Assembly: GCA_963664295.1 (NCBI GenBank)
Contig: OY760935.1
Location: forward strand, 1-64,000
Reading direction: 5' to 3'
Origin: Candidatus Altimarinota bacterium
GTDB lineage: Bacteria; Patescibacteriota; Gracilibacteria; CAIRYL01; GCA-016699755
Length of the DNA stretch: 64,000 bases
In this document: positions 3,471 through 52,900 of the stretch, piece by piece
Position numbering within the stretch: the stretch's first letter is position 1
How the letters are laid out: each line of letters opens with the position of its first letter
Position numbers and translations under genes: made by a program
The notes under the pieces: model-generated
What the model was told of the DNA's origin: nothing
Seen by the model: the letters and a program-made list of their open reading frames with translations, nothing else
Database searches by the model: none

Positions 3471-3474
3471 GTTT

Positions 3475-3552: not shown

Positions 3553-3592
3553 CCTTAAACATAGTGTACAAAATGCCAATATTAACAAGCTA

Positions 3593-3743: not shown

Positions 3744-4016
3744 ATGAGTAAATCAAAAATTACACCCTTGGGCGCAAGAGTAGTAGTTCGTCCAGAAACC
3801 GCAGAAGAAAAAACAGCCTTTGGTATTGTTCTTCCAGACACCGCATCTAAAGAAAAACCACAAAAAGGAACTGTAATTGCAGTTGGCTCACAACAAAAAG
3901 AAGTAAAAGAAAAAGACACAGTAATTTTCAAAAAATACGCACCAACAGAGATTAAAATAGAAAATGAAGAATTATTTATCTTAGACGAAGATGATATTCT
4001 TGCAATTTTATCTTAA
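3744..4016 (+). CDS. groES: Co-chaperonin GroES
   Basis: [26 protein letters not shown] and EDDILA motifs. Confidence 0.97.
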
Positions 4017-4059
4017 TTCTAGTTTGTTTTGAATTTTCACATTTTTAAATTTATTTTAA

Positions 4060-5697
<1,638 letters not shown>

Positions 5698-9716: not shown

Positions 9717-10375
9717 ACACCACCCTTTGCAAACACAATAGCAGAAATATTTTTAAACCCCGCTTTTTTGAATGGTTTTACACATTCTTCAAGAGTAGAA
9801 CAAGTCACCACAACATCATCAACTAAATAAATTGTTATGTTTTTATTTATTTTTGTTAATTTTTTCTCATTTATTGAAATGCAATTTTTTAAGTTTTCAG
9901 TTCTTTCTTTGCCTTTTAGCTTGGATTGCGGAAAAGTGTTTCTATTGCGATAAATTAAATTATTTTCCACAGGAATATTTTTTATTTCTGCAAATAAATC
10001 AGCAAGAATTTTGCTTTGATTAAAGCCTCTTTGGTTTAAGCGAGTTTTGTGTAATGGTACAGGTACAAAAATAGCATTATATGCAAAATTTATTTTATTT
10101 AATTTATTTTCAAAAAATGACTTAAAATCATGAGCAACCCTCTTTGAATAACGAAATTTTAATTTTTTCACTGCTTTTTCAATTATTTTATTGCTCCATG
10201 GGCTTAAAAAATAGATTTTTTTAATATTTTTTGAAGAAAAATAGCCATTTTTTTCATTTTTAATATTTTTTAAGCAGTTTTTACACAAAAAAGAACCTTC
10301 TTTTTTGCACCCAAGACATTCAGGTGGCAATAAAAAGTCAAAAAATTTGTTTATTAACTCAATAAATTTTTTCAT
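9713..10375 (-). CDS. comF: ComF-family competence protein (Zn ribbon + PRTase)
   Basis: CxxC...CxxC, VPVPLH, RGFNQS and LVDDV motifs. Confidence 0.9.
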   Translation of the reverse strand: MKKFIELINKFFDFLLPPECLGCKKEGSFLCKNCLKNIKNEKNGYFSSKNIKKIYFLSPWSNKIIEKAVKKLKFRYSKRVAHDFKSFFENKLNKINFAYNAIFVPVPLHKTRLNQRGFNQSKILADLFAEIKNIPVENNLIYRNRNTFPQSKLKGKERTENLKNCISINEKKLTKINKNITIYLVDDVVVTCSTLEECVKPFKKAGFKNISAIVFAKGGV

Positions 10376-10449
10376 ATCCTTATTTTCTAATAAAATAAAA
10401 ACCTTTGCAATTAAAGCTTATTTTTGGCAAAATTGCTCTGCTTGGGCTT

Positions 10450-10526
10450 GGGCGGTTAGCTCAGTTGGCTAGAGCGCATCGTTGACTCCGATGAGGTCAT
10501 GTGTTCGAATCACATACCGCCCACCA
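10450..10526 (+). tRNA. tRNA-Val(GAC)
   Basis: Full cloverleaf; GGGCGGT/ACCGCCC acceptor stem, anticodon loop TT-GAC-TC, TTCGAAT, A73 and encoded CCA. Confidence 0.93.
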
Positions 10527-10548
10527 GAAATATTTTTTTATAAAAAAC

Positions 10549-10779
10549 ATGAAAGCATTTGCAAGTACAATTCAAGTAATCGTTGCTATCCTCCTATCAC
10601 TTTTAATTTTATTACAACAAAAAGGAAGTGGCTTAGGCTCACTTGCTGGCGGAGGTGGAGGAGAGTTTTATGCAACAAAAAGAGGTGCAGAAAAAGTACT
10701 TTATCGTGTGACAGTTGCATTGGCAGTTTTATTTTGTCTTAATGCCTTTGTTTTTCCTTTATTGCCTGATTCAGAGTAA
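10549..10779 (+). CDS. secG: Preprotein translocase subunit SecG
   Basis: ILLQQKGSGLG and TKRGAEK motifs, two TMs; start set to ATG 10549 because the longer ORF overlaps the tRNA. Confidence 0.92.
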   Translation: MKAFASTIQVIVAILLSLLILLQQKGSGLGSLAGGGGGEFYATKRGAEKVLYRVTVALAVLFCLNAFVFPLLPDSE

Positions 10780-10782
10780 AAA

Positions 10783-36548: not shown

Positions 36549-39500
36549 TTACTCGCAAGCATTATTAAAAATCACCGTCTCTCCGTTTTGAGTGTCAATT
36601 ACTGCGCGGAAAACTGCAATAACATCAAGTAAATCAACCATGCCATTGTCGTTGAAGTCACTTGCTTCTAGTTGGGTTGCATCTGCCTCTGCTGAGCCAG
36701 AATAAAATTTCATTGCTAAGATTGCGTCAGTAAGGCTGTATACTCCATCGTAATTAACATCTCCGCTAGCAGGAATGCCAACATTAAATGGATAAATTTC
36801 TGAATTTAAACCAGCTGTTGAAGATACTCTTACAACAATTGTGTGTTTTCCGTTTGTCAAGTCTGCTAATTGAGGAATATAGATTGGTATTTCTAATGTA
36901 AGAAGTTCGTTGGTAAATGAGTAAGAGGCAGAAGCTGAGTCATTGATAATATTAAATACTTGTGCTGATGAAGGTATTTCATTAACAGAGCAATATCGAC
37001 CTTTTACTAAAGAAATTTCTACTGTTTTTAGGTCATCAATGCCATAAAGATTTAGAATATCTATATATAATGTGTCAGTTGTTCCTTTTGCAGCAGAGGC
37101 ATTGCCAGTGGTTGTAATTGAGATTATATCTAATAAGGCTCTTTCTGAATTTATTGTAATTGTGTTGGAAATTTCATCTTCCATAGTGGCATAGATTTTT
37201 GCTGTGCCTTCTTGGACAATTGTTAAGTAATAATTTGTTAGTGTGCCTATTGCTTCTGTGCCTAACCATTCAACCTGTCCAGAAATATCCCTATTTGTTC
37301 CATCTGCATAGGTTCCTATTGCTGTTAGTATGCAAATATCATTAACGCTTGCAGTATTATCGGTGCAGTTAGAGCTGATCTCAATATCTGTTAAATCTTT
37401 TTTATCTATTGCTGTCAGCGTAATAGAGTTATTGCAAAGAATTTCTTTTTCATCACTATTTACTATTGAACCTTTAATATTAGCAGAACCGTCGTTTGTG
37501 ATTGTTAAATCTCTGTCGCTAAGTGAGGCAATGGAAGAATATCCGTACCAATTAACAAGGTCTCCTACTTCTGCTGTATTGCCGTCCTCAAAGGTTCCCA
37601 CAGCTGATAATGTACAAACATCTTCAACCATGACGCTGTCTTCACAATTTAAGCTTGAAACCTCAAAAGACACTAATTTATCTGCATCAAGAACATTGAT
37701 TGTAATATTATTATTTGAAGCTATTCCATCTTGAACCGCAGAGATTGTTGTTATGCCTGCAGTGGAAATAGTAAGTACATCTTCGCTCACAGACCCTATT
37801 GATTCTGTTCCTCTCCATTCTACTTCTTTAGATATATCTCTTATTGTTTCGTCTTCGTATGTTCCTGTTGCTATTAAAGTGCAGATATCTCCGGTCACTA
37901 AGTTTTCCCCGTAATTACAATTTAAAAGATTGATACTTAATGATTTTAATGGTGAATCATTAACTGTAATAGTTGTGCTTATTGTTTTTGATTCATCGTT
38001 TTTATCAGTTATTTCAAGTGTTGCTTCGCCTGTTGTGTCGCCTGCACTTGTGAATGAAAAAACATTATTTGTAATACTGCCTTTTAATCCTGTTTCGTTA
38101 GGGTTAAAGGTAAATATATATTCTCCTGATCCACCAGTGACTATAATTGGGTCAGGTAGTTCATCCACATCTACTATTTGTGAATTGATGTTTAAAGAAA
38201 GGCTTGTTGATTCGATAATAATTACTATTTCTTTTGTTAGATTGTCATCATAATAATCAGTTATGTTTAAACTTACTGTTCCTGCTGAGCTTGGATCTGT
38301 ATTAAAAACAAATGTGTCACCATTTTGATAACCTCTAAGACCTGTTCCGTCTGAGTCATCAAGTTCCATAATATATTCGCCTGATCCACCGTTGACCTGA
38401 ATATCACCAATATCTTCATTAAGATTTATTTTTTGAGAACCAATATTTGTTGTTAATGGCCTGGCAAGCACATTTATTGTTGAGCTTGCTGTAATATTTG
38501 TCATGTCTTCTTCTGTAAGATTTACCACTGCTGTACCTTTTCTGAGTGCTGACTGAGTAAATACAAAATTATTATTTTCTCTTTGACCTAAAAGTTTGGT
38601 ATCACCTTCGTCAAATACAAAATTATATTTATCAGAACTTGAATAAGCTATTAAAGGCTTTGGAGTTTCTCCTACAAAAATTGATTGTTCGCTAATATTA
38701 ATTACAGGACTTGTTTGATAAACTGTGATTTTTGAAGTGGCAATGTTTTCTTGGTCATAGGTATCATAAATATTAAGAGTAATTGTTCCAGTTGTTAGAG
38801 CAGGTGAATTAAAAGTAAAAGTATTACCTTCGCTTGATCCGCTAATTCCCATTGCTTCATCAGCACTAAGTTCAAAAGTATATTCGCCTGATCCACCACT
38901 TGCTTTAATTGTTAATGGTGTTTGGTTGATTGCTATTGATTGACTGGCAATATTAGGTACTATTTTTAAACTATTTACTGTCACAATTGTTGTTTCTGAG
39001 ACATTATTCACGGTATCTGTTATTTGAATTGTAAATATACCTTTCTGTTCTGCTGATTTTGAGAAGATAAAAGTATCACCATTGATTGTGCCTTCTAATC
39101 CTGTGCCATTATCTGTTGTGGCGAAAGTGTATGTGCCTGATCCGCCAGAAATACTTATTGGATTTGGCGTTGAGCCTACTGTGATGCTTTGGTCACCATT
39201 TTCTATGTTTAATACTACTGATTTTATATTTATTGTTGCAGTAATACTTGTATTTGTTTGATTATCCGTAATTGTCAAAGTAGCTGTGCCAGTATTAGTA
39301 GCTGTACTAAAGTTATAAATATTATTATTTTCACTATCCACAGAGCCAGTAAGTCCTGTTGTTCCAGCATCAAGAGAAAAAGAATAATTACCAGAACCTC
39401 CGTTGACTTCAATGTTTGTAGGAGTTTTGCCAATTGCTACTGTTTGTGAGCTAAAATTCATGGAGAGCTCATTTGCAGAAACATTAATTACTGTAGTTAC

Positions 39501-42500
39501 GCTTGTATTTGTTTGATTATCCGTAATTGTCAAAGTAGCTGTACCAGTATTAGTAGCTGTACTAAAGTTATAAATATTATTATTTTCACTATCCACAGAG
39601 CCAGTAAGTCCTGTTGTTCCAGCATCAAGAGAAAAAGAATAATTACCAGAACCTCCGTTGACTTCAATGTTTGTAGGAGTTTTGCCAATTGCTACTGTTT
39701 GTGAGCTAAAATTCATGGAGAGCTCATTTGCAGAAACATTAATTACTGTAGTTACGCTTGTATTTGTTTGATTATCCGTAATTGTCAAAGTAGCTGTACC
39801 AGTATTAGTAGCTGTACTAAAGTTATAAATATTATTATTTTCACTATCCACAGAGCCAGTAAGTCCTGTTGTTCCAGCATCAAGAGAAAAAGAATAATTA
39901 TTTGAACCATTATTAACTGTAATACTTGCAGGAGTACCGTTTAAGTTGATAGTTTGACTACTTATATCTACAGATGGTCCACTTGCAGAAATATTAATTA
40001 ATACATCAATATTTTCATTTGTTTGATTATCCGTAATTGTCAAAGTGGCTGTACCGGTACTAGTAGCTGTACTAAAGTTATAAATATTATTATTTTCACT
40101 ATCAACTGAACCAGTAAGTCCTGTTGTTCCAGCATCAAGAGAAAAAGAATAATCCCCAGAGCCCCCGTTAATAATAATATTTAAAGGAGTGCTGTTAATA
40201 CTTATGGTTTGTGAGCTTAGATTTGCTGAAAGATTGGTAATCATGATATTTATTTTTGTGGTTATGCTTTCATTAGTATCATTATCCGTAATTGTCAAAG
40301 TGGCTGTACCGGTACTAGTAGCTGTACTAAAGTTATAAATATTATTATTTTCACTATCAACTGAACCAGTAAGTCCTGTTGTTCCAGCATTAAGAGAGAA
40401 GCTGTATTCTCCAGAACCACCACTAGCAGTAATACTAAAAGGAGTTTTGTTGATGCCAATTGTTTGTTCGGTTAAGTTTGCCGAAAGATTGGTGACGCCA
40501 ACATTCACTATTGCTTTAACGCTTTCATTAGTATCATTATCCGTAATTGTCAAAGTAGCTGTACCAGTATTAGTAGCTGTACTAAAGTTATAAATATTAT
40601 TATTTTCACTATCAACTGAACCGGTTAATCCTGTTGTTCCAGCATTAAGAGAGAAGCTGTATTCTCCAGAACCACCACTAGCAGTAATGCTAAAAGGAGT
40701 TTTGTTGATGCCAATTGTTTGTTCGGTTAAGTTTGCCGAAAGAATGACAACAATAACATTTATTGTCACATCAACGCTTTCATTAGTTTTATTGTCCGTA
40801 ATTGTCAAAGTGGCTGTACCGGTACTAGTAGCTGTACTAAAGTTATAAATATTATTATTTTCACTATCAACTGAACCGGTTAATCCTGTTGTTCCAGCAT
40901 TAAGAGAGAAGCTGTATTCTCCAGAACCACCACTAGTTTCAATGCTTGTTGGTGTGTCATAGAGCCCAATTGTTTGTGAGCTTAGATTAGCGGATAGTGT
41001 TTCTTCCTGAACTTCTATGCTAACATTTATAACTTCTTCACTATTATTATCTGTGATTGTCAAAGTAGCTACACCTTTACTAATTGCTGTGTTGTTTTCA
41101 TTAAAGCTATATGTATTGATATTGTTTTCGTTTTCATCATTTTTTGTTGCTGTTCCACTTAGTCCTGTGCCGTTATTGCTAAATTGAAACGAATAACTCC
41201 CTGATCCTCCTGATGCAACAATGTTTTCTGGTTTTTGCCCAATATAGATAGTTTGTTGAAGCAAATTAACAGATAAAGGATTGTAATCTTCTGCTATTAC
41301 AGAAATTTCTGCTGTTGTAGTGTGAGTTTGGCTTATATGATCTTCGCACTTGCTTCCGTTAATTGTTGAGTCGCAAGTACAAGTAATATTCAAGCTAGCT
41401 TTTTTTGCATCAGTTGCTGGACCTGTAATTGAAAATTCAAATTCAGATGTTTTGCCACCTGTTATTCCTGATCCGTTTTCATTGAAATCATATGTACAGG
41501 TATCGTACCAATCTTTGCCAATGCCAATTACTTTTATATTTTCTGCAACACCATTAACACTAATTACTTGTTTTTTGTAATCAACTTCTACATTATTTAG
41601 CTGAAAAAATGGTAAAACAGAACAACTAGAAGGATTTGTTTCTATGTAACAATCATAAGTTGCTTCTATTGCGCAAGCATCAGAACAACCATCTTCATTA
41701 TCAGTATTTCCATCATCACATTCCTCTGGTTCTTCCAGAACGCCATTTCCACAGCTAAAACATTGAGATAAACTATTTTCCGTATTATCACATTGCCAGT
41801 CAGTTTCAATTAAACATTCTGAAGAACAACCATCTTCATTATTAGTATTCCCATCATCACATTCTTCTGATCCTGCTTTACTTCCGTCTCCACAAGTGCC
41901 AGTTTCTACGCAAAAATAAAGTTCATTTGGGTCAATATCATCACCATAAGCTGAACCTAGAACAGCAATCCTTCTAAATCCTTCTGAGCAACCTGTTTGC
42001 GGGTTTTTGTCTGTATGGTTGATTGTTGTTTCTGTGATGAAATTATTAAGATTTGTTTCAGTGCCATCTATTGCGTGCCAACCAAACCAGCTATTTTTTG
42101 ATGTTTTTTCATTGCCAGAATTATGCACACATGAATAAATTGTATCTGTTTTTAAATCTTCTATTGTTGTTCCTTCATCTTCATTGTTCACAAATTGTAA
42201 TTTTATTTGTTGATAATTTGCAGGACAACTGGTTTTTGGGTCAATTTCTTGGCAATTAATTGTTGTGCTCGTCACAGAGTCATTGTCCCCTTGGTTTTCT
42301 CCATGATAACCACACCAAAAGCTATTTATTTCTGAGTCGTTAGGATTAAGAATTTGATCATTAGCTTCTGTAAGTACACAAGTAGAAAAAGTGTAATAAT
42401 CAGTATCGCCAGCGCTCGCAAGTCCGCTATAAGAAACCTTTGCAAACTCTGCTGGACAATTATTTTTTGGATTTTCTCCTCGACAAAGCACAGTAGTATT

Positions 42501-42731
42501 TTCTTCAATCGAACTATTTTCACCTCTTTTTTCAATATTATAACCACACCACATACCAAGATAGTCTTCTGATGTTATGGTGCCAGGATTTGTAATGTCA
42601 CCCTTATAGTTTTCAGGATTTGTTTGAAAAATACCAACACCAAGGGCCAAAAATAAGCTAATAGTTGACATAGTAACTATGCTTTTATAAAAAGCTGGCT
42701 TTTTATTTTTTTCTATGTTTGTTGTATTCAT
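36549..42731 (-). CDS. 2060-aa surface protein with Cys-rich repeats, tandem Ig-like repeats and a C-terminal dockerin
   Basis: N-terminal TM; three WCG/WFG repeats; two Myxococcus-type CGDG..EECDDGN..DGCS repeats; 85-aa SGGSG.YSF repeats; GDVNYDG/SDFNDNG duplicated Ca-binding loops. Confidence 0.9.
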   Translation of the reverse strand: MNTTNIEKNKKPAFYKSIVTMSTISLFLALGVGIFQTNPENYKGDITNPGTITSEDYLGMWCGYNIEKRGENSSIEENTTVLCRGENPKNNCPAEFAKVSYSGLASAGDTDYYTFSTCVLTEANDQILNPNDSEINSFWCGYHGENQGDNDSVTSTTINCQEIDPKTSCPANYQQIKLQFVNNEDEGTTIEDLKTDTIYSCVHNSGNEKTSKNSWFGWHAIDGTETNLNNFITETTINHTDKNPQTGCSEGFRRIAVLGSAYGDDIDPNELYFCVETGTCGDGSKAGSEECDDGNTNNEDGCSSECLIETDWQCDNTENSLSQCFSCGNGVLEEPEECDDGNTDNEDGCSDACAIEATYDCYIETNPSSCSVLPFFQLNNVEVDYKKQVISVNGVAENIKVIGIGKDWYDTCTYDFNENGSGITGGKTSEFEFSITGPATDAKKASLNITCTCDSTINGSKCEDHISQTHTTTAEISVIAEDYNPLSVNLLQQTIYIGQKPENIVASGGSGSYSFQFSNNGTGLSGTATKNDENENNINTYSFNENNTAISKGVATLTITDNNSEEVINVSIEVQEETLSANLSSQTIGLYDTPTSIETSGGSGEYSFSLNAGTTGLTGSVDSENNNIYNFSTATSTGTATLTITDNKTNESVDVTINVIVVILSANLTEQTIGINKTPFSITASGGSGEYSFSLNAGTTGLTGSVDSENNNIYNFSTATNTGTATLTITDNDTNESVKAIVNVGVTNLSANLTEQTIGINKTPFSITASGGSGEYSFSLNAGTTGLTGSVDSENNNIYNFSTATSTGTATLTITDNDTNESITTKINIMITNLSANLSSQTISINSTPLNIIINGGSGDYSFSLDAGTTGLTGSVDSENNNIYNFSTATSTGTATLTITDNQTNENIDVLINISASGPSVDISSQTINLNGTPASITVNNGSNNYSFSLDAGTTGLTGSVDSENNNIYNFSTATNTGTATLTITDNQTNTSVTTVINVSANELSMNFSSQTVAIGKTPTNIEVNGGSGNYSFSLDAGTTGLTGSVDSENNNIYNFSTATNTGTATLTITDNQTNTSVTTVINVSANELSMNFSSQTVAIGKTPTNIEVNGGSGNYSFSLDAGTTGLTGSVDSENNNIYNFSTATNTGTATLTITDNQTNTSITATINIKSVVLNIENGDQSITVGSTPNPISISGGSGTYTFATTDNGTGLEGTINGDTFIFSKSAEQKGIFTIQITDTVNNVSETTIVTVNSLKIVPNIASQSIAINQTPLTIKASGGSGEYTFELSADEAMGISGSSEGNTFTFNSPALTTGTITLNIYDTYDQENIATSKITVYQTSPVINISEQSIFVGETPKPLIAYSSSDKYNFVFDEGDTKLLGQRENNNFVFTQSALRKGTAVVNLTEEDMTNITASSTINVLARPLTTNIGSQKINLNEDIGDIQVNGGSGEYIMELDDSDGTGLRGYQNGDTFVFNTDPSSAGTVSLNITDYYDDNLTKEIVIIIESTSLSLNINSQIVDVDELPDPIIVTGGSGEYIFTFNPNETGLKGSITNNVFSFTSAGDTTGEATLEITDKNDESKTISTTITVNDSPLKSLSINLLNCNYGENLVTGDICTLIATGTYEDETIRDISKEVEWRGTESIGSVSEDVLTISTAGITTISAVQDGIASNNNITINVLDADKLVSFEVSSLNCEDSVMVEDVCTLSAVGTFEDGNTAEVGDLVNWYGYSSIASLSDRDLTITNDGSANIKGSIVNSDEKEILCNNSITLTAIDKKDLTDIEISSNCTDNTASVNDICILTAIGTYADGTNRDISGQVEWLGTEAIGTLTNYYLTIVQEGTAKIYATMEDEISNTITINSERALLDIISITTTGNASAAKGTTDTLYIDILNLYGIDDLKTVEISLVKGRYCSVNEIPSSAQVFNIINDSASASYSFTNELLTLEIPIYIPQLADLTNGKHTIVVRVSSTAGLNSEIYPFNVGIPASGDVNYDGVYSLTDAILAMKFYSGSAEADATQLEASDFNDNGMVDLLDVIAVFRAVIDTQNGETVIFNNACE
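39246..40935 (-). repeat. Intragenic tandem repeats, period ~255 bp (85 aa), about 7 units with a near-identical core
   Basis: Recurring AGTTGLTGSVDSENNNIYNFSTAT(S/N)TGTATLTITDN; units starting near 39250, 39505 and 39760 are almost identical in DNA. Confidence 0.93.
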
Positions 42732-42835: not shown

Positions 42836-43939
42836 TTATTCTTCTAATTCGTCCTTCTCCTCTTTTGTGAGAATATCTGCTCCCAACATGGTTTTAATTA
42901 AACTCTTTGAGTGATAGTTTTGACGCACTGTATCCCTGCTTACTAGTTCGTTTTCGTATAATTTAGTTAGATATTTGTCAAATAAGATATTTCCTATTTT
43001 GGTTGTAATTTCCATTTGTCCATAAATTTCTTGAATATCGCCATTTCTAATAAGATTTTTAATGGCATCATCAGGAAGCATAATTTCACGACAAGGGATT
43101 AGTTGATACTCATCTTTGTATTGCACTAAAGTTTGAGACAATACGCCTTTTAGTTCATTTGCTAATTGCATTAAAAGTTGTCGTTTTTTTAACGGAGGAA
43201 ACATGTTAATAATTCTTTCTATGCTTTGTACTGCATCAACTGTGTGTAGTGTTGCTATTACAAAATATCCAGATTCACACATAGTAAGTACTGTTTCCAT
43301 GGTTTCAAATCCTCGAATTTCACCAACACAAACCACATCTGCATCTTGTCTAAACACAGACTTTAGCTGTCTTGCAGAATCATTGAAGTTTTTTGGAATT
43401 ACACACTGTGAAATAATGCTTTGTTTGCGTTCATGTATGTATTCAATAGGATCTTCAAACATGATTATATTTAGTTTTCTGGTTTCATTTAAATAATCTA
43501 CTAAGCTATTCATTAAGGTTGTTTTTCCTGAGTTATTTGGACCTGTAATTAACAAAAGACCACTTCGATTATTGATAATATTTACAATTTCATTGCTCAC
43601 TGAAAGATCTTTTATGCTTGGTAGTTCTGGTGGTATATAGCGGATATTCATGCCTACACCTCTGCGTTCTTTAAAAACATTTATCCTGAAGCGTCCTGGA
43701 ATTCCTTCGATTGTTTTACCAAAATCACCATTATTATTTTTTTCAATTTCTTTTAATTCTTCTTTTTCCAATGCTTCTTCTAGAAATTGATTTAATTCTT
43801 CGGCTGTTAACTCATTTTTGTCCAAAGAAATAATTTCACCTGTTTTATCGCGCATGCAAGGTGTTTCGCTAGTAATTAAATGAATATCCGATATTTTATT
43901 TTTACTTTGAAAAGCAAGTATTTCTTTTATTGAAACCAT
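42836..43939 (-). CDS. pilT: PilT/PilU-family type IV pilus ATPase
   Basis: SDIHL, RFRINVF, GPNNSGKTT, EDPIE, VGEIR, ATLH and AIKNLIR motifs. Confidence 0.85.
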   Translation of the reverse strand: MVSIKEILAFQSKNKISDIHLITSETPCMRDKTGEIISLDKNELTAEELNQFLEEALEKEELKEIEKNNNGDFGKTIEGIPGRFRINVFKERRGVGMNIRYIPPELPSIKDLSVSNEIVNIINNRSGLLLITGPNNSGKTTLMNSLVDYLNETRKLNIIMFEDPIEYIHERKQSIISQCVIPKNFNDSARQLKSVFRQDADVVCVGEIRGFETMETVLTMCESGYFVIATLHTVDAVQSIERIINMFPPLKKRQLLMQLANELKGVLSQTLVQYKDEYQLIPCREIMLPDDAIKNLIRNGDIQEIYGQMEITTKIGNILFDKYLTKLYENELVSRDTVRQNYHSKSLIKTMLGADILTKEEKDELEE

Positions 43940-43940
43940 A

Positions 43941-45053
43941 TTATTTTTTTGTAAAAGGATTATCCATTAATATTTTTTTTCGAGGATCTGTTTCTTCTGT
44001 TTCCGTCTCTGTTTCTTCTTTTAAAGTTTCTTCTATTCCTTCTCCTTCTTGTTCTTGTTCAATTTCAGTTTTTGCTTGATTAAGCTCTTCCTCTGCTGTT
44101 GTTTTTTCTTCCTCTGCTTCTTCTAGTTCTTTTTGTTTTTCTGAAAGCAGAACCTCTGCTTCTTCTTTGGCTTGTTGTAGAGCTTTTAAGGCTTCTTCTT
44201 TTTCTCTTAGAGCCTCCTCTGCTTCTTTTTCTTCTTGTTCTGCTTTTTCTTCTGCTTGTTTTAATTGCTCAATTGCTGTTTGTTCTAGCTCTTTTGCTTC
44301 CTCTGCTTCTTTTGCTTCTTTGCTTGCCTCTCTTTTTGCTTCTTTTGCTTCCTCTTGTTCTTTTTTTGCTTTTTCTTTTGCTTCCTCTGCTTCTTTTTCT
44401 TCTTGTTCTGCTTTTTCTTTTGCTTGTTCTAGTTCTTGAATTGCTTTTTCTTTTTCTACTTGAGCCATTTTTGCTTCTTCAGACTCTTTTTCTGCCTCTG
44501 TTTCACTTGTTTTTAGCTGTGCTTCTGCTTCTTCCAGTTTTCTTTTTGCTTCTTCGATTGCAAGCTTTGCATCTTGTTCTTTTTCTTCCGCTTTTTCAAT
44601 TTTTTCCTCTAATTCCTCAGTATTTATTTTTTCCTCTTGAGCTTCCTTTATTTCTTTCGGTTCTTCAGGCTTTGTGTCTTCAATTGTTTCTCCTTCTTCA
44701 GCAGGTGCTAATTTGAGCTCTATTTTTGGCTCTTCTTCTGTGTTTTTATTTTCTTCCTCCACTTCTTCTGTCTCTGTGGCTACCTCTGCTTGTTCGTTTG
44801 GTTCTATTTTTTCTTCTTTTGCTGTTTCAAATACACTTTTTTTAGGCTCTTTTTTTTGTTCAATTTTTTCTTCAATGCTATCTTTTGCTCCCAAAAAGCC
44901 TTTTTTTAATCTACTAAAGATGCCCTCTTTTTCAGGTTCAGGCTCTTTTTCGATTTGTTTAGAATTTAAGTAATTCTTAATTTCTAAAAGTTCTTCTTGG
45001 CTTAATCCCTCAAGAACTTGTTTAATTTGATCAATTTTATCCTGATTTTTCAT
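43941..45053 (-). CDS. Glu/Lys/Ala-rich coiled-coil protein
   Basis: Long EKAEQEEKEAEEA-type repeats; stop lies 1 bp before the pilT start. Confidence 0.8.
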   Translation of the reverse strand: MKNQDKIDQIKQVLEGLSQEELLEIKNYLNSKQIEKEPEPEKEGIFSRLKKGFLGAKDSIEEKIEQKKEPKKSVFETAKEEKIEPNEQAEVATETEEVEEENKNTEEEPKIELKLAPAEEGETIEDTKPEEPKEIKEAQEEKINTEELEEKIEKAEEKEQDAKLAIEEAKRKLEEAEAQLKTSETEAEKESEEAKMAQVEKEKAIQELEQAKEKAEQEEKEAEEAKEKAKKEQEEAKEAKREASKEAKEAEEAKELEQTAIEQLKQAEEKAEQEEKEAEEALREKEEALKALQQAKEEAEVLLSEKQKELEEAEEEKTTAEEELNQAKTEIEQEQEGEGIEETLKEETETETEETDPRKKILMDNPFTKK

Positions 45054-45122
45054 TTTGTTTTTGTTAATTTATCTATTTATTTTACCATATTTTTTTCTTT
45101 TTAGTAAAGCCTTTTTTTGTTT

Positions 45123-45527
45123 TTAATTTCCTTTGTATTCCATGTGTGCATAAGATTTCACTTTTTTAAATCCAAGTTTTTCATAAAAACCTACAAGCCA
45201 ATCTTGTTTAGGGCTTGTGGATAAATTAATATGATCTATTTTTAATTTTTTGCATATTTTTATGCTTTTTTTAATTATTTTTTGTGCAATGCCTTGATTT
45301 CTCATGTCTTCTTGGACTCTTAAATCCAGCAAAAAAGCAAATCTATTAAAATCAGTTAAAATTCTGCAAGCACCAACAATTGTTTTGTTTTTTAAACAAA
45401 CAACAAAGAGGGGGGTGTTTTTGGTGGCACTTAAATATTCTTTTTGATAATGATTTTGATAAAAATCAGTAATTGAATTTTGAAATTCGGAAATATTTTT
45501 ATGATTTATAATTAAATAGGAAAGCAT
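45123..45527 (-). CDS. GNAT-family N-acetyltransferase
   Basis: VGACRI...LDLRV..DMRNQGIA (motif A) and GFYEKLGF; 13 bp downstream of the rSAM gene. Confidence 0.92.
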   Translation of the reverse strand: MLSYLIINHKNISEFQNSITDFYQNHYQKEYLSATKNTPLFVVCLKNKTIVGACRILTDFNRFAFLLDLRVQEDMRNQGIAQKIIKKSIKICKKLKIDHINLSTSPKQDWLVGFYEKLGFKKVKSYAHMEYKGN

Positions 45528-45540
45528 TTTTTGAAATTAT

Positions 45541-46806
45541 TTAATTTAAAAAGCTTAAATGACAGCCACCTTTGCATATATCTTGCAGTATACAATCTTG
45601 ACATGCCTTTGTAATATTTTTTTGTATATTGCTTATAGCAAAAGGTTGAATTTTTTGTTGCCATATATTTTTAACACCTTCGCTGATATCGCCAAATGTT
45701 CTGGTGTCATGAGGGCAAACCTTTGCTTCTCCTTTGTTATTCACTGCCATCCATCTTACTCCGGCATTGCAGTGTTGATTTAAAAATTTTTGACCAGTGG
45801 GCATATCAGTCTCGTTTATTATAGGTGTTTTTGTTTCTGAAAGACAATGTCTTTGTGAGCAGGGAGCTGTAATATTTATGCCTTCTGGATCTATTTGATC
45901 AAGTGCATCTCTAAATTGAGGATAATAAACACCAAATAATTGATCATTTCTTGATGTTGAAACGTATCTCATTAATCTAAATTCATGTACTCCTAATTCC
46001 TTGATGGTTTTAATTACAAAGGCAATGTCTTTAATATTTTGGTTTACTAAAGTCATCTCCACTATTACATTAATACCTTGTTTTAACGCCTCTTCTATTG
46101 CTTTAATTGTTTTTTTGAAACCATTTTTGTCTCCAACTAAATTATTATGCGAACTAGGTGAGCCATGCATGGAAATTAAAATTTCTTTTACATTATTTTC
46201 ACTTAGATATTTACTTTTTTCTGTTGTCAAAGTTGTGCCATTTGTAAAAACAACCTGATATAAGTTGTGTTTTGCACCAGATTGTATTATTTGATCAAAA
46301 TCAGGATGCAAAGAAGGCTCACCGCCACTGTATCTTATTCTAAATAAACCATTATCACTGCACTCTTTTTGTAGTGCAACTATTTGTTCAAGGGGTAAAT
46401 GTGGATTGCCTTTCATTTCTTTTTTTTGTGTTTTCCAGGTGTTATAGCAAAATTGACAACTCCAATTACATATTCTTGTAAGTTCAAGTTCTAAATTTAC
46501 GGGAAAAATAACTTTTTCATCTTGAATATTTGGATCCTTGTATAACTCTGTTGTGTCTTGATTGATCTGATTCGGCAGATCTTTCATTAATGTTGAAATA
46601 AGGTCTTGAATATCACTTATTACCATTTCTGGACTGGCTTCATATTCTTTTGCTATTTCTTGCGCAAGTGTTTCAATACTTTTTCCTTGTTTTAATTGAT
46701 CAAGTATAAAATCACCCATTTCATCTAATTGGTGTTCAACTCCTGTGTTAATATTAAGGGCCATTTTTAAGTCAGGACGATGAACTAATTTTGAAAGTTG
46801 TTTCAT
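45541..46806 (-). CDS. PqqD/RRE-fused radical SAM/SPASM enzyme
   Basis: N-terminal LDEMGDFILDQL...SIETLAQEIAKEYE...DIQDLI (PqqD-like); CNWSCQFC, SGGEP and TNG motifs; CNAG...G...CP and CQDCx5Cx3C. Confidence 0.93.
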   Translation of the reverse strand: MKQLSKLVHRPDLKMALNINTGVEHQLDEMGDFILDQLKQGKSIETLAQEIAKEYEASPEMVISDIQDLISTLMKDLPNQINQDTTELYKDPNIQDEKVIFPVNLELELTRICNWSCQFCYNTWKTQKKEMKGNPHLPLEQIVALQKECSDNGLFRIRYSGGEPSLHPDFDQIIQSGAKHNLYQVVFTNGTTLTTEKSKYLSENNVKEILISMHGSPSSHNNLVGDKNGFKKTIKAIEEALKQGINVIVEMTLVNQNIKDIAFVIKTIKELGVHEFRLMRYVSTSRNDQLFGVYYPQFRDALDQIDPEGINITAPCSQRHCLSETKTPIINETDMPTGQKFLNQHCNAGVRWMAVNNKGEAKVCPHDTRTFGDISEGVKNIWQQKIQPFAISNIQKNITKACQDCILQDICKGGCHLSFLN

Positions 46807-46808
46807 AG

Positions 46809-47726
46809 TTAAAATTTAATACAGTTTTTATGAATTGCTGTGATATTGCATCCGCTTTCGCAAATCCCTCTTGTTTCACAATTAAGACATTGAGCTAGTT
46901 GTGGGCGAAAATTTCTTAATCGCTCTTTTTCAATTTGCATTGCATCCCACATTTTTTTTAATGTAGCACCTTGAAAATCATGAATTATATTCATCATAAA
47001 ACAGCTAACAGCCTTGCCGTCAATATTTACAGAAATAATTCCTGGATCTCCACCATCACAAACTTCACCCTCAACAAAACCTTCTTCGATTTGTTGGTCC
47101 GGGTTATCTGCTGTTTTTTGTTTTATAACATTTTTGATATCAGTAATGTCTTGATTTGAGAGAACTAAATTACGACTTGCATTGCCGGCTAATTGGGTGG
47201 GGGAGATGTCAATTTTAACATTTAAACTTGCTCCTAAGTCAATCATTTCTGCAACTTCTCCTTTATTGAGTGAGTTAATAGAGAATCTGAGTGAATACGA
47301 AACACCTTGACTATCAAGCATTTCCAAAATTGTCATAATTTTGGCGAAGCTGTTTTTTCCTCTAATTGCATCAGTAGTTTTTTCTGTTGCTCCATCTAAG
47401 CTAATATTACAATGTGCATTATGATCTTTGACAGCATTTGCTATGTTGGGATGATTTAAAAATAAAGCATTTGTGCTAATGTTGATGTTTTTAAACATTT
47501 TTTGACCTGCAAAACGAATAATATCTTCAAATTCAGGATGCATCAAAGGCTCTCCGCCTGTTATATCTAAAGTGCTAACACCTAAGTCTTTGGATTCTGC
47601 AATAATACTTTTTGCTTTTGTAGGATTAATAAAAAAAGGTCTTTTTTCTCCCATATAACAATGTTTGCAATTTAAATTACAACCTTCAGCAATAGCTAGC
47701 TTAACGCGTGAATATTTTTCATTCAT
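46809..47726 (-). CDS. Radical SAM/SPASM enzyme without RRE
   Basis: CNLNCKHC, TGGEP, STN and ISLDG motifs; CDGG...DG...SC and CLNCx5Cx3C. Confidence 0.93.
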   Translation of the reverse strand: MNEKYSRVKLAIAEGCNLNCKHCYMGEKRPFFINPTKAKSIIAESKDLGVSTLDITGGEPLMHPEFEDIIRFAGQKMFKNINISTNALFLNHPNIANAVKDHNAHCNISLDGATEKTTDAIRGKNSFAKIMTILEMLDSQGVSYSLRFSINSLNKGEVAEMIDLGASLNVKIDISPTQLAGNASRNLVLSNQDITDIKNVIKQKTADNPDQQIEEGFVEGEVCDGGDPGIISVNIDGKAVSCFMMNIIHDFQGATLKKMWDAMQIEKERLRNFRPQLAQCLNCETRGICESGCNITAIHKNCIKF

Positions 47727-47748
47727 AAGATTTTTTTAAAAAGGTGGT

Positions 47749-47816
47749 GAGTCGTAGCCCACAAGAGGAGCTACGACTCGGTTGTTTGTTGCAGACAAGC
47801 AATGTAAGCATTGCTT
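47749..47816 (-). promoter_or_regulatory. Two stem-loops between the precursor ORF and the first rSAM gene
   Basis: GAGTCGTAGC (47749-47758)/GCTACGACTC (47770-47779) 10-bp perfect stem; AAGCAATG-taag-CATTGCTT (47797-47816). Confidence 0.8.
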
Positions 47817-47822
47817 AGGTCA

Positions 47823-47888
47823 TTAGTTGCACTGCGCGGAGGCTTGCTTTTTCGACCTGGTCTGCGGAGCGGTGTATGCCTTTTTCAT
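47823..47888 (-). CDS. Putative RiPP precursor peptide MKKAYTAPQTRSKKQASAQCN (21 aa)
   Basis: Hand-translated; AAAGGAGGTGAT lies 5 nt before the ATG; TAA-TGA double stop; YxxP motif; first gene of the rSAM operon. Confidence 0.85.
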   Translation of the reverse strand: MKKAYTAPQTRSKKQASAQCN

Positions 47889-47893
47889 TATTC

Positions 47894-47905
47894 ATCACCT
47901 CCTTT
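47894..47905 (-). promoter_or_regulatory. Very strong Shine-Dalgarno sequence
   Basis: AAAGGAGGTGAT, a 12-nt complement of the canonical 16S 3' tail. Confidence 0.85.
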
Positions 47906-48044
47906 CCGGGGCATGATTTATGCTAAAAAACATAACCCATGACATAAATTATATTTCTTTTGTATGAATTTTTGATGAAATAATGATATTTACTTCACAG
48001 TTTTTTAAAAACTAGCTATTATATTTTGGAAGATAATTTAGTCA

Positions 48045-49625
48045 ATGCCAAAAAAAAGTAAATCGTCAAAAAAAGTTATTGTTTTAGGAAGTGGTCCTTA
48101 TTCAATTGGATCTTCTGTTGAGTTTGATTGGTGTAGTATTGCAGCAGCAAAAACACTACAAAAAGAAGGGCATGAAACAATAATGGTTAATTCTAACCCT
48201 GAAACTGTTTCTACTGATTTTGATACTTGTAATAAGCTTTATTTTGATGAACTTTCACTAGAAAGAGTTTTGGATATTATTGACATAGAAAAACCAAACG
48301 GAATTGTGGTTTTTTCTGGCGGGCAGATACCAAACAACCTTGCGCCAAAATTAGCAGAGCAAAAAGTAAAATTAATGGGTACTAACCCAAAAAATATAGA
48401 TAAAGCAGAAGATAGACACCAGTTTTCTTCTCTTTTGGATGAATTGGAAATAGACCAGCCTGCTTGGAAAGAGTTTACAAGTCGCGAACAGGCAATTAAA
48501 TTTGCTAAAAAATTTGGCTATCCTGTTTTAATTCGTCCTTCAAAAGTTCTTTCTGGGGCTGCTATGGCTGTTGCCAGAAACGAAGATGAGCTTTGTACAT
48601 TTTTAGCAAAAGCTGCAAAAATTGATTCTGATGCCCCAGTTGTAATTTCAAAATATGAAGTTGGAGCAAGGGAAATTGAAATGGACGCAGTTGCTCATAA
48701 AGGCAAAATGGTTATTTGGGCAATTTCTGAGCATGTAGAAAATGCTGGTGTTCATTCTGGTGATGCCACCCTGGTTTTGCCTCCGCAAAAAACCTGGCTG
48801 GAAACGATCCGTAGAATTAGAAAAATAACTAAAAAATTAGCAAAAAATTTGGATATAACAGGCCCTTTTAATATTCAATTTTTGGCAAAATCAAATGACA
48901 TTAAGGTAATTGAGTTAAATTTACGCGCTAGTCGTAGTTTTCCTTTTGTTTCTAAGGTGACAGGTCACAATTTTATTGAAATTGCCACTAAAGCCGTGCT
49001 TGGCAAAGTTGAACCAAAAGAAAAAAGAGAGCAAAAATATCAAACTCTTGATCTTGGTCATGTTGGTGTAAAAGTTCCTCAATTTTCTTTTTCTCGTCTT
49101 TCTGGTGCTGATCCTGTGCTTTCTGTTGAAATGGCTTCTACTGGTGAGGTTGCTTGTTTTGGTGAGAACTTTGAAGAGGCATTTTTAAAAGCTATGATTT
49201 CTGCTGGATTTAGAGTTCCAAATAAGAATATTTTGATTTCTATTGGAAAAACTAAAGACAAAGTTAGTTTTATTGATAGTGCTAAGCTTTTAGTTGAAAT
49301 GGGATATAGCCTATACGCTACCACAGGTACAGCTGAATTTTTGAAAGAGCAGGGAGTATCTGCAAAAATTCTCCATAGAGTGTCTTGCGGTAAAAAGCCA
49401 TCAATAGTTGATTATATTTATCAGAAAAAACTTGATTTAGTTATCAATATTCCGAAAAATTTTGCTCACGATGAAGAAACAGACGGATTTAGGCTAAGAA
49501 GAGCAAGTGTGGACTCAAATATTCCACTTGTAAATAATTTACAAGTGGCAATTGCACTTATTGGTTCATTGAAAAAATATGTTAATAAGGAATTAAAATC
49601 CCAATCTTGGGACGACTTTGTTTAA
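48045..49625 (+). CDS. carB: Carbamoyl-phosphate synthase large subunit, C-terminal half only (ATP-grasp 2 + MGS domain)
   Basis: GSGP..IGSSVEFDWC, NSNPETVSTD, AGVHSGDA, RASRSFPFVSK, EMASTGEV and YATTGT motifs; 526 aa. Confidence 0.9.
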   Translation: MPKKSKSSKKVIVLGSGPYSIGSSVEFDWCSIAAAKTLQKEGHETIMVNSNPETVSTDFDTCNKLYFDELSLERVLDIIDIEKPNGIVVFSGGQIPNNLAPKLAEQKVKLMGTNPKNIDKAEDRHQFSSLLDELEIDQPAWKEFTSREQAIKFAKKFGYPVLIRPSKVLSGAAMAVARNEDELCTFLAKAAKIDSDAPVVISKYEVGAREIEMDAVAHKGKMVIWAISEHVENAGVHSGDATLVLPPQKTWLETIRRIRKITKKLAKNLDITGPFNIQFLAKSNDIKVIELNLRASRSFPFVSKVTGHNFIEIATKAVLGKVEPKEKREQKYQTLDLGHVGVKVPQFSFSRLSGADPVLSVEMASTGEVACFGENFEEAFLKAMISAGFRVPNKNILISIGKTKDKVSFIDSAKLLVEMGYSLYATTGTAEFLKEQGVSAKILHRVSCGKKPSIVDYIYQKKLDLVINIPKNFAHDEETDGFRLRRASVDSNIPLVNNLQVAIALIGSLKKYVNKELKSQSWDDFV

Positions 49626-49628
49626 TTC

Positions 49629-49934
49629 TTATTGGTGTTTTGCTTTGTATTTCTCAATTTGAACTTTTAATTTTTTTTCGCATTCATCAATAGCATTATC
49701 TACTGTTGGTTGGCTTGTTTCTGCGCGCAATGTATCGCTTGGTGCGTATATTGTAATAGTGCAAAGAATTCTTTTTTCTTTTTCTCGTACTGAGTCATAG
49801 TCTATTTCTGCCTTAATTTTTGTTGACTCATCGTTTAGTCTGCGAGCGTAATTAAGCAATTTTTCTAGTTTTCCATGAATTCTTTGTTCCTGATCTTCAG
49901 AAATACTAATGTTTTTAGTGTGAATATTTATCAT
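49629..49934 (-). CDS. hpf: Ribosome hibernation factor HPF/RaiA (short form)
   Basis: MINIHTKNI...KLEKL...TLRAE...AID...KLKVQIEKYK; start set to ATG 49934. Confidence 0.85.
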   Translation of the reverse strand: MINIHTKNISISEDQEQRIHGKLEKLLNYARRLNDESTKIKAEIDYDSVREKEKRILCTITIYAPSDTLRAETSQPTVDNAIDECEKKLKVQIEKYKAKHQ

Positions 49935-49971
49935 TTTTGATTTATTAAAATTCGTACTTATTTTAGCAAAA

Positions 49972-52900
49972 TTATTTTTTTGTATAAACCTTAACTCGTT
50001 CAGAATAAAAGTTTTTTCCATTAAAATTTACTTTTGCAAATATTTCGCTTGTATTTATGCCTTGAATAAAGGCTGTTTTAAACATTCTTTCTGAGCTTAA
50101 GTCGTTAACGCCAAATTCCGCTAAAGCAATTTTTTTGCCACCATCTTTTTGCAAATAAATTGTGAGGCCTTCAAAGTTTTCAGCCATTTCTTTAGTAACG
50201 CCTACACTAACTTGCACCACATCACCTTCATTAACTTTTTTGCCATCTATTGGGTCAAAAATAGCAAATTTATCACTATTATTGTATTCATTGCTAATAT
50301 TAAAACTTGTTTCTGTTGTTTTTTGATTGCCAGCAGTATCAAAAACAGTGACCTTTAGTGTGTGTCTGCCTAATGAAGAGGGTGTTTTATAGCTTAGGTT
50401 ATATGGACTTGTTTTTGAGCTACCTATTTTTTTGTTGTCTAAATAAAAATCAACACGATCCACTGCACTGCGTGCGTCATAAGCATCTACAAGAAAGCTT
50501 ACTGTTGTATTTGCTGGCACGCTTTCTTCTTTTGTTGGGTATTTTATTTCAACTTCAGGAGGGGAGTCATCAGAACCAATTTTAACCTCAATTTCTGCAG
50601 AAGATGTATAGTAATATTGATCATAAACAATAACTTTTATTTTATGATTTGATCCTCTTTCTGTTCCGTTTGGAATAGTAATGGTGCCATTGTATGGGTA
50701 TGTAATAGAGCTTGTTTTTAATTCATCATTCCAGAAAAATTCTACATTTTTTACACCATTTGGAGCTTCAATAGAAGTGCGTACATCAGCAAAAGGAGGA
50801 GTGACAATGCCATAATTAATAGGTGAGTTAATAGTTATGCTTGGCTTTTGGTTTGCAAGTTCTTCTGTGTATAAAGTTGTTGTTTCTGTTGGTGCTTTTG
50901 CCATGAATTTTTCTACACCAAACTCAGCAACAAATTCGCGTCCTTTTTCGCTTAGCCATTCTTTTACTGGATTTTCCCAGCTTGCTTTGTCTGGATAATA
51001 AGCATGAAAATTTAAAATTGCTCTTTTTTCTAGTGCTTCTGCGGGTGTGTATTCATTTGGTAATTTGCCACTTATTTTTTCTACTTCAATTATTTTAAGT
51101 GCATCATCTGTATCTTTTGGTAAAGCAAAGCTAGCAAATTTTTCTTTGGTTATGAGTTTTTCATCTGTATCTGGTAATGGTAATTTGCCAGAAAATCGAG
51201 ATACAGGGATTATTTTTATTCCTGTTGGCACTTCAAATTTTTTCACTTCTACTTCTTTGTGTGCTTCTTCCATAAATTCTTTCCAAATTGGGCCAGCGAC
51301 ATCAAAACCATTTGCGTTCCAGTACATAACACTAGAATCATTATTTCCAGTCCAGACAATTGTTGTAAAATCAGGAGTGTACCCTACTGTCCAAGCATCT
51401 AGTGGCATTGGTCTATTATTTATTTTTTTGTTTGATGTGCCTGTTTTAGCGGCATTTGGTCTGCCATTTAGCTGTAGATACTGGTTCCAGCCAGGACCTC
51501 TGGCAGATGTATCAGATAAAACATCTGTCACAAGATAAGCCACTTGTGGATCCATTACTTCTTCAAATTCTGTTGGTAACTCCCTGTTGTCTAATAAAAT
51601 ATTACCTTGTCTGTCGCGTACTAATAAAATAGGGCTTAATGGTATTTTTTTTCCATTATTTGCGAGTACAGAAAAACCTTGTGCCATATCCAGAGGGCGC
51701 ACTTCACCAGCTCCAAGAGCAATTGCATTGCCAAAAAAGTCGGCGTCATTATAAAGAGTGATACCAATTTGATTTGATAATTCAACAACTTTGTCAGCAC
51801 CAACAATGAAACAAGCTTTAATTGCTGGAATATTTAAAGATCTACCTAGTGCTTCGCGCAGAGATACAGGACCATTAAATTTGCCATCATAATTTTGTGG
51901 TATCCAGCCGGCACCAAAGTTAGTTTCAACATCAAAAAGAACACTACCTGGAGCAAGTTTGCCACTTAAAAAAGCGGTCGCATAAACAATAGGCTTAAAA
52001 GAAGATCCAGGAAGTCTTTTTTGTAGTATTACATTAACTTGTCCATCATTTTCATTGTCCCAATAATCGCGAGAGCCAACCATGGTAGTAATGTAGCCGG
52101 TTTTTGTTTCTATACTAACCAAAGCTGCATTTTTTGCGCCAAAGTTTTCTTCGTTTATTTCTGCTCTTTTGCTAATAATTTCTTCTGCCTTTGTTTGTAA
52201 ATCATAGTCAATAGTTGTGATTACTTCTAATCCACCTTTTTCAATAAGTTCTTTGCCAAAGTTTTCTTCTAAAACTTCTTGAACATAAAAAACAAAATGA
52301 GGAGCACTAATATCCTGCCTAAATTCTTGAAATTCAAGTGTTTTTAAGTCTTCTGTTGCTTGTTGATACTCAGTTTCATTTATAAAATTTAATGCCTTCA
52401 TTCTTTTGAGAACCCAATCTGCACGACCAGGGAAATAATCAATAGCATCATTTGCTAAAGTGACCTCTTGTCCTCTGAGGCCTACCAGAATAGTAATTCC
52501 TGGCAGGTCATATATTTCTTGATAACTTGTATATCCTTTTTGTTCTATTTCTTCTTTTGACAAAGTGGTGTCAGTAAAAGCATGACTGCCCCAAGGCGAA
52601 TAATAGGTTGGTTTTTGCACTAATGCTGCTAATATTGCTCCTTCTGCTACGCTTAAATCTTTGGCGCTTTTGCCAAAAAAAGCTTGTGAAGCAGTTTCTA
52701 CTCCCAAAACACGCCCAAAAGAAACCTTGTTCATATAAAGCTCAAGGATTTCATTTTTTTCCATACTGCTTTCAATTCTGAATGATAGATACCATTCTTG
52801 CAGTTTTTGTATATATGTTCTTCCTTGATCAGCAAAAATGTTATCAACTAGCTGGTTTGTGAGAGTAGAGCCTCCTCTTGGTGGACAAAAACCACCCAAA

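Follow-up and report, generated by a model that had tools for sequence, protein, structure and literature searches.

A radical SAM-type RiPP family with a fixed YxxP-x10-Gln-Cys precursor and glycyl-tRNA synthetase as its candidate target

What might be made from a 21-residue peptide that is encoded alongside two radical S-adenosylmethionine (SAM) enzymes and a GNAT acetyltransferase? The question is raised by a cluster of four co-oriented minus-strand genes in the 64,000-nucleotide stretch analysed here (hereafter the window), which comprises positions 1-64,000 of contig OY760935.1 in assembly GCA_963664295.1 of a Candidatus Altimarinota bacterium. A preliminary description of this DNA had proposed a pathway for a peptide that is ribosomally synthesized and modified post-translationally (a RiPP), and the gene coordinates and lengths that it gave were confirmed, with intergenic gaps of 96, 2 and 13 bp in the order precursor, rSAM-B, rSAM-A and GNAT. 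We conclude that the cluster belongs to a new RiPP family of the radical SAM type with a fixed YxxP-x10-QC precursor, and the evidence points to glycyl-tRNA synthetase (GlyRS) as the candidate target of its product. The features of the locus are as follows (RRE, RiPP recognition element).

48018..48045, minus strand: sigma-70-like site TTGACT-16-TATAAT upstream of the precursor, 11/12 positions, a consensus match only
47896..47903, minus strand: strong Shine-Dalgarno sequence AGGAGGTG, 7 nt upstream of the precursor ATG as read from the sequence
47823-47888, minus strand: precursor peptide of 21 residues, MKKAYTAPQTRSKKQASAQCN, with the YxxP leader motif at Y5-P8, a 10-residue spacer and the core Q19-C20-N21
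47749..47821, minus strand: two RNA hairpins in the interval between the precursor and the first enzyme gene (-32.2 kcal/mol, z -7.4, 0/200 shuffles)
46809-47726, minus strand: rSAM-B, a radical SAM/SPASM enzyme of 305 residues without an RRE, the subtype-I partner enzyme (Pfam and Cys pattern)
45541-46806, minus strand: rSAM-A, an RRE(PqqD)-radical SAM-SPASM protein of 421 residues, the core enzyme of the family (Pfam and Cys pattern)
45123-45527, minus strand: single-domain GNAT acetyltransferase of 134 residues, a candidate self-protection enzyme (Pfam)

At least 30 distinct rSAM-A clusters with DNA were found among the genome and metagenome matches listed, and more exist. The 30 are the window, L091 to L094, L171, the plasmids L251 (Geobacillus thermodenitrificans pLW1071) and L252 (from Clostridium tagluense), L013 (Nocardia takedensis) and 21 Nocardia clusters from 20 of 201 sampled genomes. 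The motif YxxP-x10-QC-x(0-3)-stop is present in 28 of the 30 (44 of 47 overlapping loci), and the spacing conserved across clusters is YxxP-x10-QC-x(1-2)-stop; the precursor co-occurring with homologous enzymes that the preliminary description had anticipated is thus a conserved one. No precursor was found in two clusters: the contig of L091 ends immediately ahead of the first gene, and in G243 the 14 kb upstream yielded neither a precursor nor a GST gene. The motif occurred in two of 259 non-orthologous control loci, both retrieved by the motif pattern itself, and in none of the 252 that remained once seven pattern-fetched loci were removed; these seven came from searching five genomes for precursors by DNA pattern, which yielded chance matches only. 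In the window genome the strict motif has a single occurrence in six frames of the whole 1.215 Mb, so the window peptide is not a chance match. The precursors of the plasmids L251 and L252 are missing from the annotation shown.

Across 19 different precursor segments the Tyr, Pro, Gln and Cys residues and their spacing are invariant, whereas the tail is variable (N, A, D, H or SF) and the Lys, Ser and Ala positions vary freely, leaving no conserved upstream acceptor position except the adjacent Gln. The core of about ten residues (SKKQASAQCN) previously suggested is therefore not supported. Because only YxxP, Gln-Cys and the spacing are invariant, Gln-Cys is very probably the site of modification, and the 10-residue spacer would act as a ruler. 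As a recognition motif for RREs, YxxP has been characterised and serves in different RiPP classes (PMC12710340; papers are cited here, by PMC number, from their available portions). That the family represents a real RiPP pathway is practically certain, and within the literature searched a cross-phylum Gln-Cys peptide family has not been described; neither the family, its precursor nor a link to GlyRS appeared there, although subscription journals were largely uncovered and an earlier description is possible.

The enzymes are equally distinctive. Pfam Radical_SAM matched both (5e-20 and 2e-24), and the N-terminal segment of rSAM-A that had been called PqqD-like proved to be a genuine RRE, with PqqD at residues 16-75 above cutoff (7e-9) and a profile that matches the lasso peptide RREs TfuB1 and TbiB1. 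The SPASM model was above cutoff for rSAM-A and reached an E value of only 0.066 for rSAM-B; Cx2Cx5Cx3C is present in both. For rSAM-A, 12 full-length homologues lie at E<=7e-57, after which nothing matched before 2e-17, and rSAM-B has 10 at E<=2e-40 with the next at 9e-26; in a profile search with rSAM-B against 1.84 billion representatives, 11 proteins scored at least 310 bits and the one that followed 208. rSAM-A and rSAM-B are thus two discrete families. rSAM-A occurs in Patescibacteria, Bacillota, Nocardia and others, forms a single clade (support 100/98) on which the partner subtypes track the branches, and keeps identical active-site residues in all subtypes. It has eight invariant auxiliary Cys (316, 321, 346, 364, 402, 405, 411 and 415), seven of which align with Cys of SuiB, C316 being extra; rSAM-B has seven (223, 242, 280, 283, 289, 293 and 302) together with an invariant C106. 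AlphaFold models of both enzymes were confident (pLDDT 89 and 92), and the best Foldseek matches were SuiB (TM 0.69-0.77), SkfB, CteB and anSME at 14-22% identity. The nearest named homologues of the cluster enzymes carry a Patescibacteria label, and the GNAT belongs with the two radical SAM enzymes as first supposed, since its only close homologue (53%) adjoins their homologues on another, 22,867-bp Patescibacteria contig, where the trio has consecutive accessions (rSAM-B, MEK7528704.1; rSAM-A, MEK7528705.1; GNAT, MEK7528706.1).

No NCBIfam model reached its cutoff for rSAM-A or rSAM-B, in line with the initial impression that the cluster resembles neither the PqqA, mycofactocin nor SCIFF systems. 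The PqqE model scored 62-78 bits against a cutoff of 381, with no ExxxY motif and no PqqB or PqqC among 53 neighbouring open reading frames (ORFs), and the MftC model 70-80 against 265, with the IDGxCGVY motif absent. The sactipeptide and ranthipeptide models were similarly far from their cutoffs (StsB, 86 versus 625 bits; PapB, 85 versus 340; SkfB, 72 versus 300; AlbA, 60 versus 850). Neither the lasso leader peptidase and cyclase families nor ThiF was found among the window genes or the 53 neighbouring ORFs, and the ESM Atlas returned generic radical SAM/SPASM clusters only. A heme or siroheme NirJ/Ahb pair was also considered and rejected (64-83 against cutoffs of 500-650; an RRE and a precursor are present). 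Elsewhere, L014, L016, L017, L026, L095 and L105 hold unrelated tandem radical SAM/SPASM pairs from other bacteria, without the QC precursor motif.

The clusters fall into three subtypes, each of which combines rSAM-A with one more peptide-directed enzyme. Type I, a branch of 10 rows in the rSAM-A tree (support 91/92), has rSAM-B with a GNAT, as in the window, or rSAM-B with a third short radical SAM enzyme, as in L092. Type II, weakly supported as one group (51/53), has a partner in which glutathione S-transferase (GST) is fused to an RRE; in Nocardia it is accompanied by a fused alpha/beta GlyRS, and in Bacillota by a major facilitator superfamily (MFS) exporter, with a LadA-type monooxygenase in three loci. 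Type III has a second RRE-radical SAM enzyme (rSAM-D) and one or two PhyH dioxygenases, with a TrmO-like protein in Nocardia. rSAM-B is missing from most clusters. The core enzyme of the family is rSAM-A, with rSAM-B as a partner that can be exchanged. The two-enzyme system of the preliminary description is therefore present in the window and characterises one subtype only.

Several details of the partners are worth recording. The third radical SAM enzyme of L092 (4280-5014) lies between the precursor and rSAM-B, has an extra N-terminal CxCC and matches no NCBIfam model at 1e-10. The GST-RRE proteins (L093, 7352-8413; L011, 6871-7941; L252, 5126-6118; L091, 35-1090) share a Cys-rich insert in the N-terminal domain (GCGC, CCC, CRC or CAC). 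To our knowledge, the genera that carry this fusion lack glutathione. The Gln-Cys-X end of the precursor resembles glutathione and may serve as a ribosomal mimic of it for the GST-RRE partner. The monooxygenase of L251 (104-1426), which we take to be LadA itself, is 79% identical to the L171 protein (9680-10999), which matches the solved alkane monooxygenase 3b9n with 835 bits; L093 has a homologue at 9615-10919. A LadA homologue lies inside the RiPP operon in L171 and L093, so the native substrate that LadA oxidises may be a sulfur-containing peptide product of such a pathway. A gene of the D-amino-acid/glycine-oxidase family lies upstream of the type III cluster of L094 on the opposite strand (3096-4292) and is either unrelated or possibly detoxifying.

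What, then, is the product directed against? A spare GlyRS gene adjoins all 23 actinobacterial clusters, namely the 21 from 20 of the 201 Nocardia genomes and those of G063 and L094; of the 181 Nocardia genomes that lack a full cluster, only 7 have a spare. A fused alpha/beta GlyRS lies directly 3' of rSAM-A in 17 of 17 GST-type Nocardia clusters, the housekeeping alpha2 enzyme being encoded elsewhere; this form was found in 21 of the 201 genomes, comprising the 17 cluster-bearing ones and 4 of the 184 others, and two of these four (G210 and G214) have C-terminal remnants of rSAM-A just upstream, with none in G124 and G228. In PhyH-type Nocardia clusters a second alpha2 GlyRS lies directly 5' of the precursor (4/4 sampled genomes, and also G063), and two alpha2 copies were present in 4/4 PhyH-type genomes versus 3/197 others. 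These cluster copies form a clade of their own (0.99) with intact catalytic motifs, and they share S81A, A190G and N290S (G061 numbering) within otherwise fixed motifs, substitutions seen in 0/10 usable non-cluster copies, the second copy of G203 being set aside as out of frame. A third arrangement occurs in the type III locus L094, from another high-GC organism, where a fused alpha/beta GlyRS overlaps the last PhyH gene. Because two enzyme classes occur in three arrangements, hitch-hiking of GlyRS is unlikely.

Among individual Nocardia genomes, G112 (L253, L273) carries one cluster each of types II and III and hence three GlyRS genes. Three cluster-free genomes have a second alpha2 GlyRS (G095, L322; G081, L323; G203, L320); the GlyRS pairs of G095 and G081 are almost copies of one another, and the genes surrounding the extra copies are unrelated and in part phage-like. 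Decayed loci were also seen: G243 (L275/L306) keeps rSAM-A and GlyRS, with the precursor and GST gene not found upstream, and in G214 (L305) rSAM-A survives as fragments and the GlyRS gene is broken over different frames.

By analogy, the spare GlyRS may be read as a signature of self-resistance; since a spare target synthetase is a known sign of it, the product probably inhibits GlyRS. In albomycin (AbmK; PMC8323819), ascamycin (AcmD) and SB-203208 (SbzA; both PMC12945691), a spare synthetase confers self-resistance and may also supply substrate. GlyRS itself is not mentioned, nor is glycyl, in the main text of PMC8323819 as available, and in the available portion of PMC12945691 glycyl-tRNA synthetase appears only in the reference list. 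We regard GlyRS as the likely target for the actinobacterial subtypes and, with a chance only slightly better than even, for the window subtype.

On balance, we favour a pathway in which Gln-Cys is converted to a small sulfur-containing antimetabolite that inhibits GlyRS, the GNAT protecting the producer by acetylation. The RRE of rSAM-A would bind YxxP, as is known of RRE behaviour, and the 10-residue spacer would place Gln-Cys in the active site, where rSAM-A would oxidise it radically by hydrogen abstraction. The partner (the seven-Cys rSAM-B here, rSAM-D or a thiol-activating GST-RRE elsewhere) would then make or rearrange a C-S bond; this order of reactions is tentative. rSAM-B, having no RRE of its own, may borrow that of rSAM-A, as the preliminary description supposed. 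In SuiB and anSME, which oxidise their substrates, the auxiliary clusters are fully ligated. In thioether synthases, of which NxxcB is a described example (PMC9389541), an auxiliary site stays open to the thiol. A role as an oxidase is suggested for rSAM-A because of its eight invariant Cys, its SuiB-like alignment and auxiliary clusters that appear, from the alignment, to be fully Cys-ligated. Unlinked host peptidases would release the warhead in the fashion of microcin C, and the released product would inhibit GlyRS. No spare GlyRS accompanies the window cluster, and its GNAT probably protects the producer by N-acetylating the product, as MccE2 does for microcin C.

A number of observations weigh against this interpretation. 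No GlyRS lies by the cluster in the window, L091 (only 2.7 kb), L092, L093, L171, L251 or L252, and the 23 GlyRS cases amount to about three independent captures, many of the Nocardia clusters being close kin. The window operon holds no exporter or protease, the cluster no nucleotide-transfer enzyme and the host genome no M17 aminopeptidase. L092, the other subtype-I locus seen, has an operon without a GNAT, an exporter, a GlyRS or any candidate protection gene. The partner enzymes differ by subtype, so the products may differ as well, and no simple Gln-Cys product obviously mimics glycine or glycyl-adenylate. The argument from the auxiliary clusters is based on one SuiB alignment and on background ligation data.

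The presence of GlyRS could also be explained if the extra enzyme were mainly biosynthetic, supplying Gly-tRNA or glycyl-adenylate or glycylating the modified Gln-Cys, as SbzA does with Ile and AbmK with Ser; GlyRS-free clusters would then use the host enzyme, the GNAT would be a tailoring acyltransferase, and GlyRS might still be hit. SbzA, AcmD and AbmK indeed have dual roles (PMC12945691, PMC8323819), the cluster GlyRS genes retain their catalytic motifs, and the recruitment of GlyRS, rather than of the cysteinyl- or glutaminyl-tRNA synthetase, would be explained if a sulfur-oxidised Cys unit carried a glycyl group. However, no cluster scanned contains a dedicated aminoacyl transferase, two GlyRS classes interchange within one subtype, which fits resistance better than specialised catalysis, and the window GNAT is one domain of 134 residues, whereas tRNA-dependent transferases have two GNAT domains (PMC12945691). 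We consider this explanation unlikely. Rather less likely still is that the window subtype makes a different compound, such as an intracellular cofactor, signal or metal or thiol ligand comparable to PQQ or mycofactocin, with the GNAT as an ordinary tailoring enzyme. A product of this kind would suit the tiny core, the operon without an exporter or protease, the three radical SAM enzymes and missing protection gene of L092, and the separate branch of subtype I (91/92). Yet recurrent cofactor-using partner enzymes were not seen near the clusters, the distribution is very patchy with plasmid-borne and decayed copies, and the precursor motif and the rSAM-A active-site residues are identical in all subtypes; the spare GlyRS genes, the MFS exporters and the mobile locations make the cofactor or signal that the preliminary description had in mind less probable than an antimetabolite. 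Very improbable is a conventional sacti- or ranthipeptide, a macrocycle for which a two-enzyme complex, as in thuricin CD, would have joined the Cys thiol to a core residue lying upstream. Such a product would be consistent with the one invariant Cys, the seven-Cys pattern of rSAM-B, the TrnC/TrnD precedent (PMC12093266) and the presence of SkfB and CteB among the nearest SPASM structures, but the adjacent Gln is the only conserved upstream position, the scores with AlbA, SkfB, StsB and PapB are far under cutoff, most clusters lack rSAM-B, and the GlyRS genes would be left unexplained.

If the GlyRS inhibitor is nevertheless preferred, how does it relate to known systems? Microcin C clusters have a terminator 3' of the precursor and a GNAT (MccE2) that acetylates the alpha-amine of the toxin (PMC8323819). 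The present family resembles them in its very short precursor, a hairpin or terminator before the enzyme, a maturase with an RRE, a GNAT with a presumed role in immunity, an MFS exporter in some clusters and a target, predicted here, among the aminoacyl-tRNA synthetases (PMC8323819). Unlike microcin C, it has no ThiF/MccB adenylyltransferase, its predicted radical SAM chemistry is at Gln-Cys, its last residue varies rather than being a fixed Asn, its predicted target is GlyRS and not aspartyl-tRNA synthetase, and its actinobacterial members have spare-synthetase resistance. With the clusters of albomycin (AbmK), ascamycin (AcmD) and SB-203208 (SbzA) it shares an extra intact synthetase of the target class, although those are nucleoside or non-ribosomal peptide synthetase-type pathways and not RiPPs. 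The finding is larger than first noted. The family resembles both microcin C and the spare-synthetase antibiotics and belongs to neither.

The domain order and predicted fold of rSAM-A are those of the RRE-fused radical SAM/SPASM enzymes SuiB, SkfB, CteB, PqqE and MftC, from which it differs in its low identity (14-22%), its NCBIfam scores far below cutoff and its new precursor motif. Small molecules built on peptide scaffolds also include the pearlins and pantocin A. The fosfazinomycin system likewise uses a short YxxP-type precursor as a handle and peptidases that free a small terminal product (PMC13622209), with enzymes and residues different from those here, where phosphonate, PEARL and ThiF genes are absent. 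RRE-GST fusions, from organisms that include Lysinibacillus sphaericus, were flagged by RRE-Finder as marking a potentially novel RiPP cluster (PMC7470986 Fig. S7), and a GST-RRE model is listed as RREFam043 (PMC12710340); these clusters are probably the GST subtype described here, but the available text of the two papers mentions neither a precursor motif or product nor a GlyRS link or a subtype with two radical SAM enzymes. The protein A4IU27 is listed in a compendium of RRE-associated radical SAM enzymes, whose available precursor table contains none of the motifs sought (PMC10288494). We presume A4IU27 to be the Geobacillus rSAM-A, on the understanding that LadA is A4IU28. Taken together, the family is uncharacterised, follows a precursor rule that is unusually clean and has a target that can be predicted.

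Aminoacyl-tRNA synthetases are established targets of antibiotics, and no natural GlyRS inhibitor from such a cluster is named in the reviews and literature searched, as far as available. It is accordingly conceivable, if short of an even chance, that the family is a new RiPP class providing the first ribosomally made GlyRS inhibitor through undescribed chemistry, with which a self-protected, ultra-small Patescibacteria cell would poison competitors or its host, the glutathione-mimic and LadA roles being possible additions. The system is small, one 21-residue peptide and three enzymes. If true, it would entail radical SAM reactions of a new type, provide the orphan GST-RRE fusion with a substrate and LadA possibly with a native role, and mean that specialised metabolites can come from Patescibacteria, a group commonly regarded as biosynthetically bare.

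The distribution is patchy. No orthologue (at E<=1e-60 or by score) was found in 60 relatives, 300 genomes of the same phylum or 170 of the same class, bearing out the expected rarity in the candidate phyla radiation, nor in 301 genomes of the genus of Streptomyces specialis, 301 Acidobacteriota, 171 genomes of an alphaproteobacterial order or GenBank phages; these sets are samples in which few candidates were scored per genome. The Bacillota clusters lie on plasmids or on a contig from a viral collection and carry the MFS exporter, and rSAM-B was not found on plasmids or viral contigs.

The host genome is a single contig of 1.215 Mb, rated 100% complete. It encodes MetK, a NifU-type scaffold and nine radical SAM matches, with no match to SufBD. 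TGA is read through in some relatives of the same class; this genome stops at TGA, and genetic code 25 was ruled out because TGA terminates 95 of 698 long ORFs. Its sole GlyRS, of the alpha2 type, happens to lie in the window at 575-1951 and was rejected as a cluster member, being a single copy 43 kb from the cluster, a proximity that is probably coincidence.

Within the locus, the GC content of the cluster equals that of the genome. Stems 3' of the precursor stop were present in the 19 loci folded, the shuffle control applying to the window hairpins only, and the hairpins are likely an attenuator or stabiliser that increases the ratio of peptide to enzyme. Sigma-70-like sites numbered 11 against 13.9 expected from shuffles. 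Contigs from public runs span 44390-50000 with zero differences and, possibly deriving from the source sample, serve as an assembly check only. The divergent neighbour at 48045-49625 is the C-terminal half of the carbamoyl-phosphate synthase large subunit (model positions 551-1049), a split carB. At 36549-42731 lies a gene for a protein of 2060 residues that is, judged by eye, Ser/Thr/Asn-rich with many near-identical repeats of about 85 residues, a Cys-rich N-terminal part and a dockerin-like end; it is likely a surface protein. In a seawater metagenome from a second study (runs X4 and X5), a close relative was found in pieces about 95-99% identical, which include the precursor region and rSAM-B (43013-49840).

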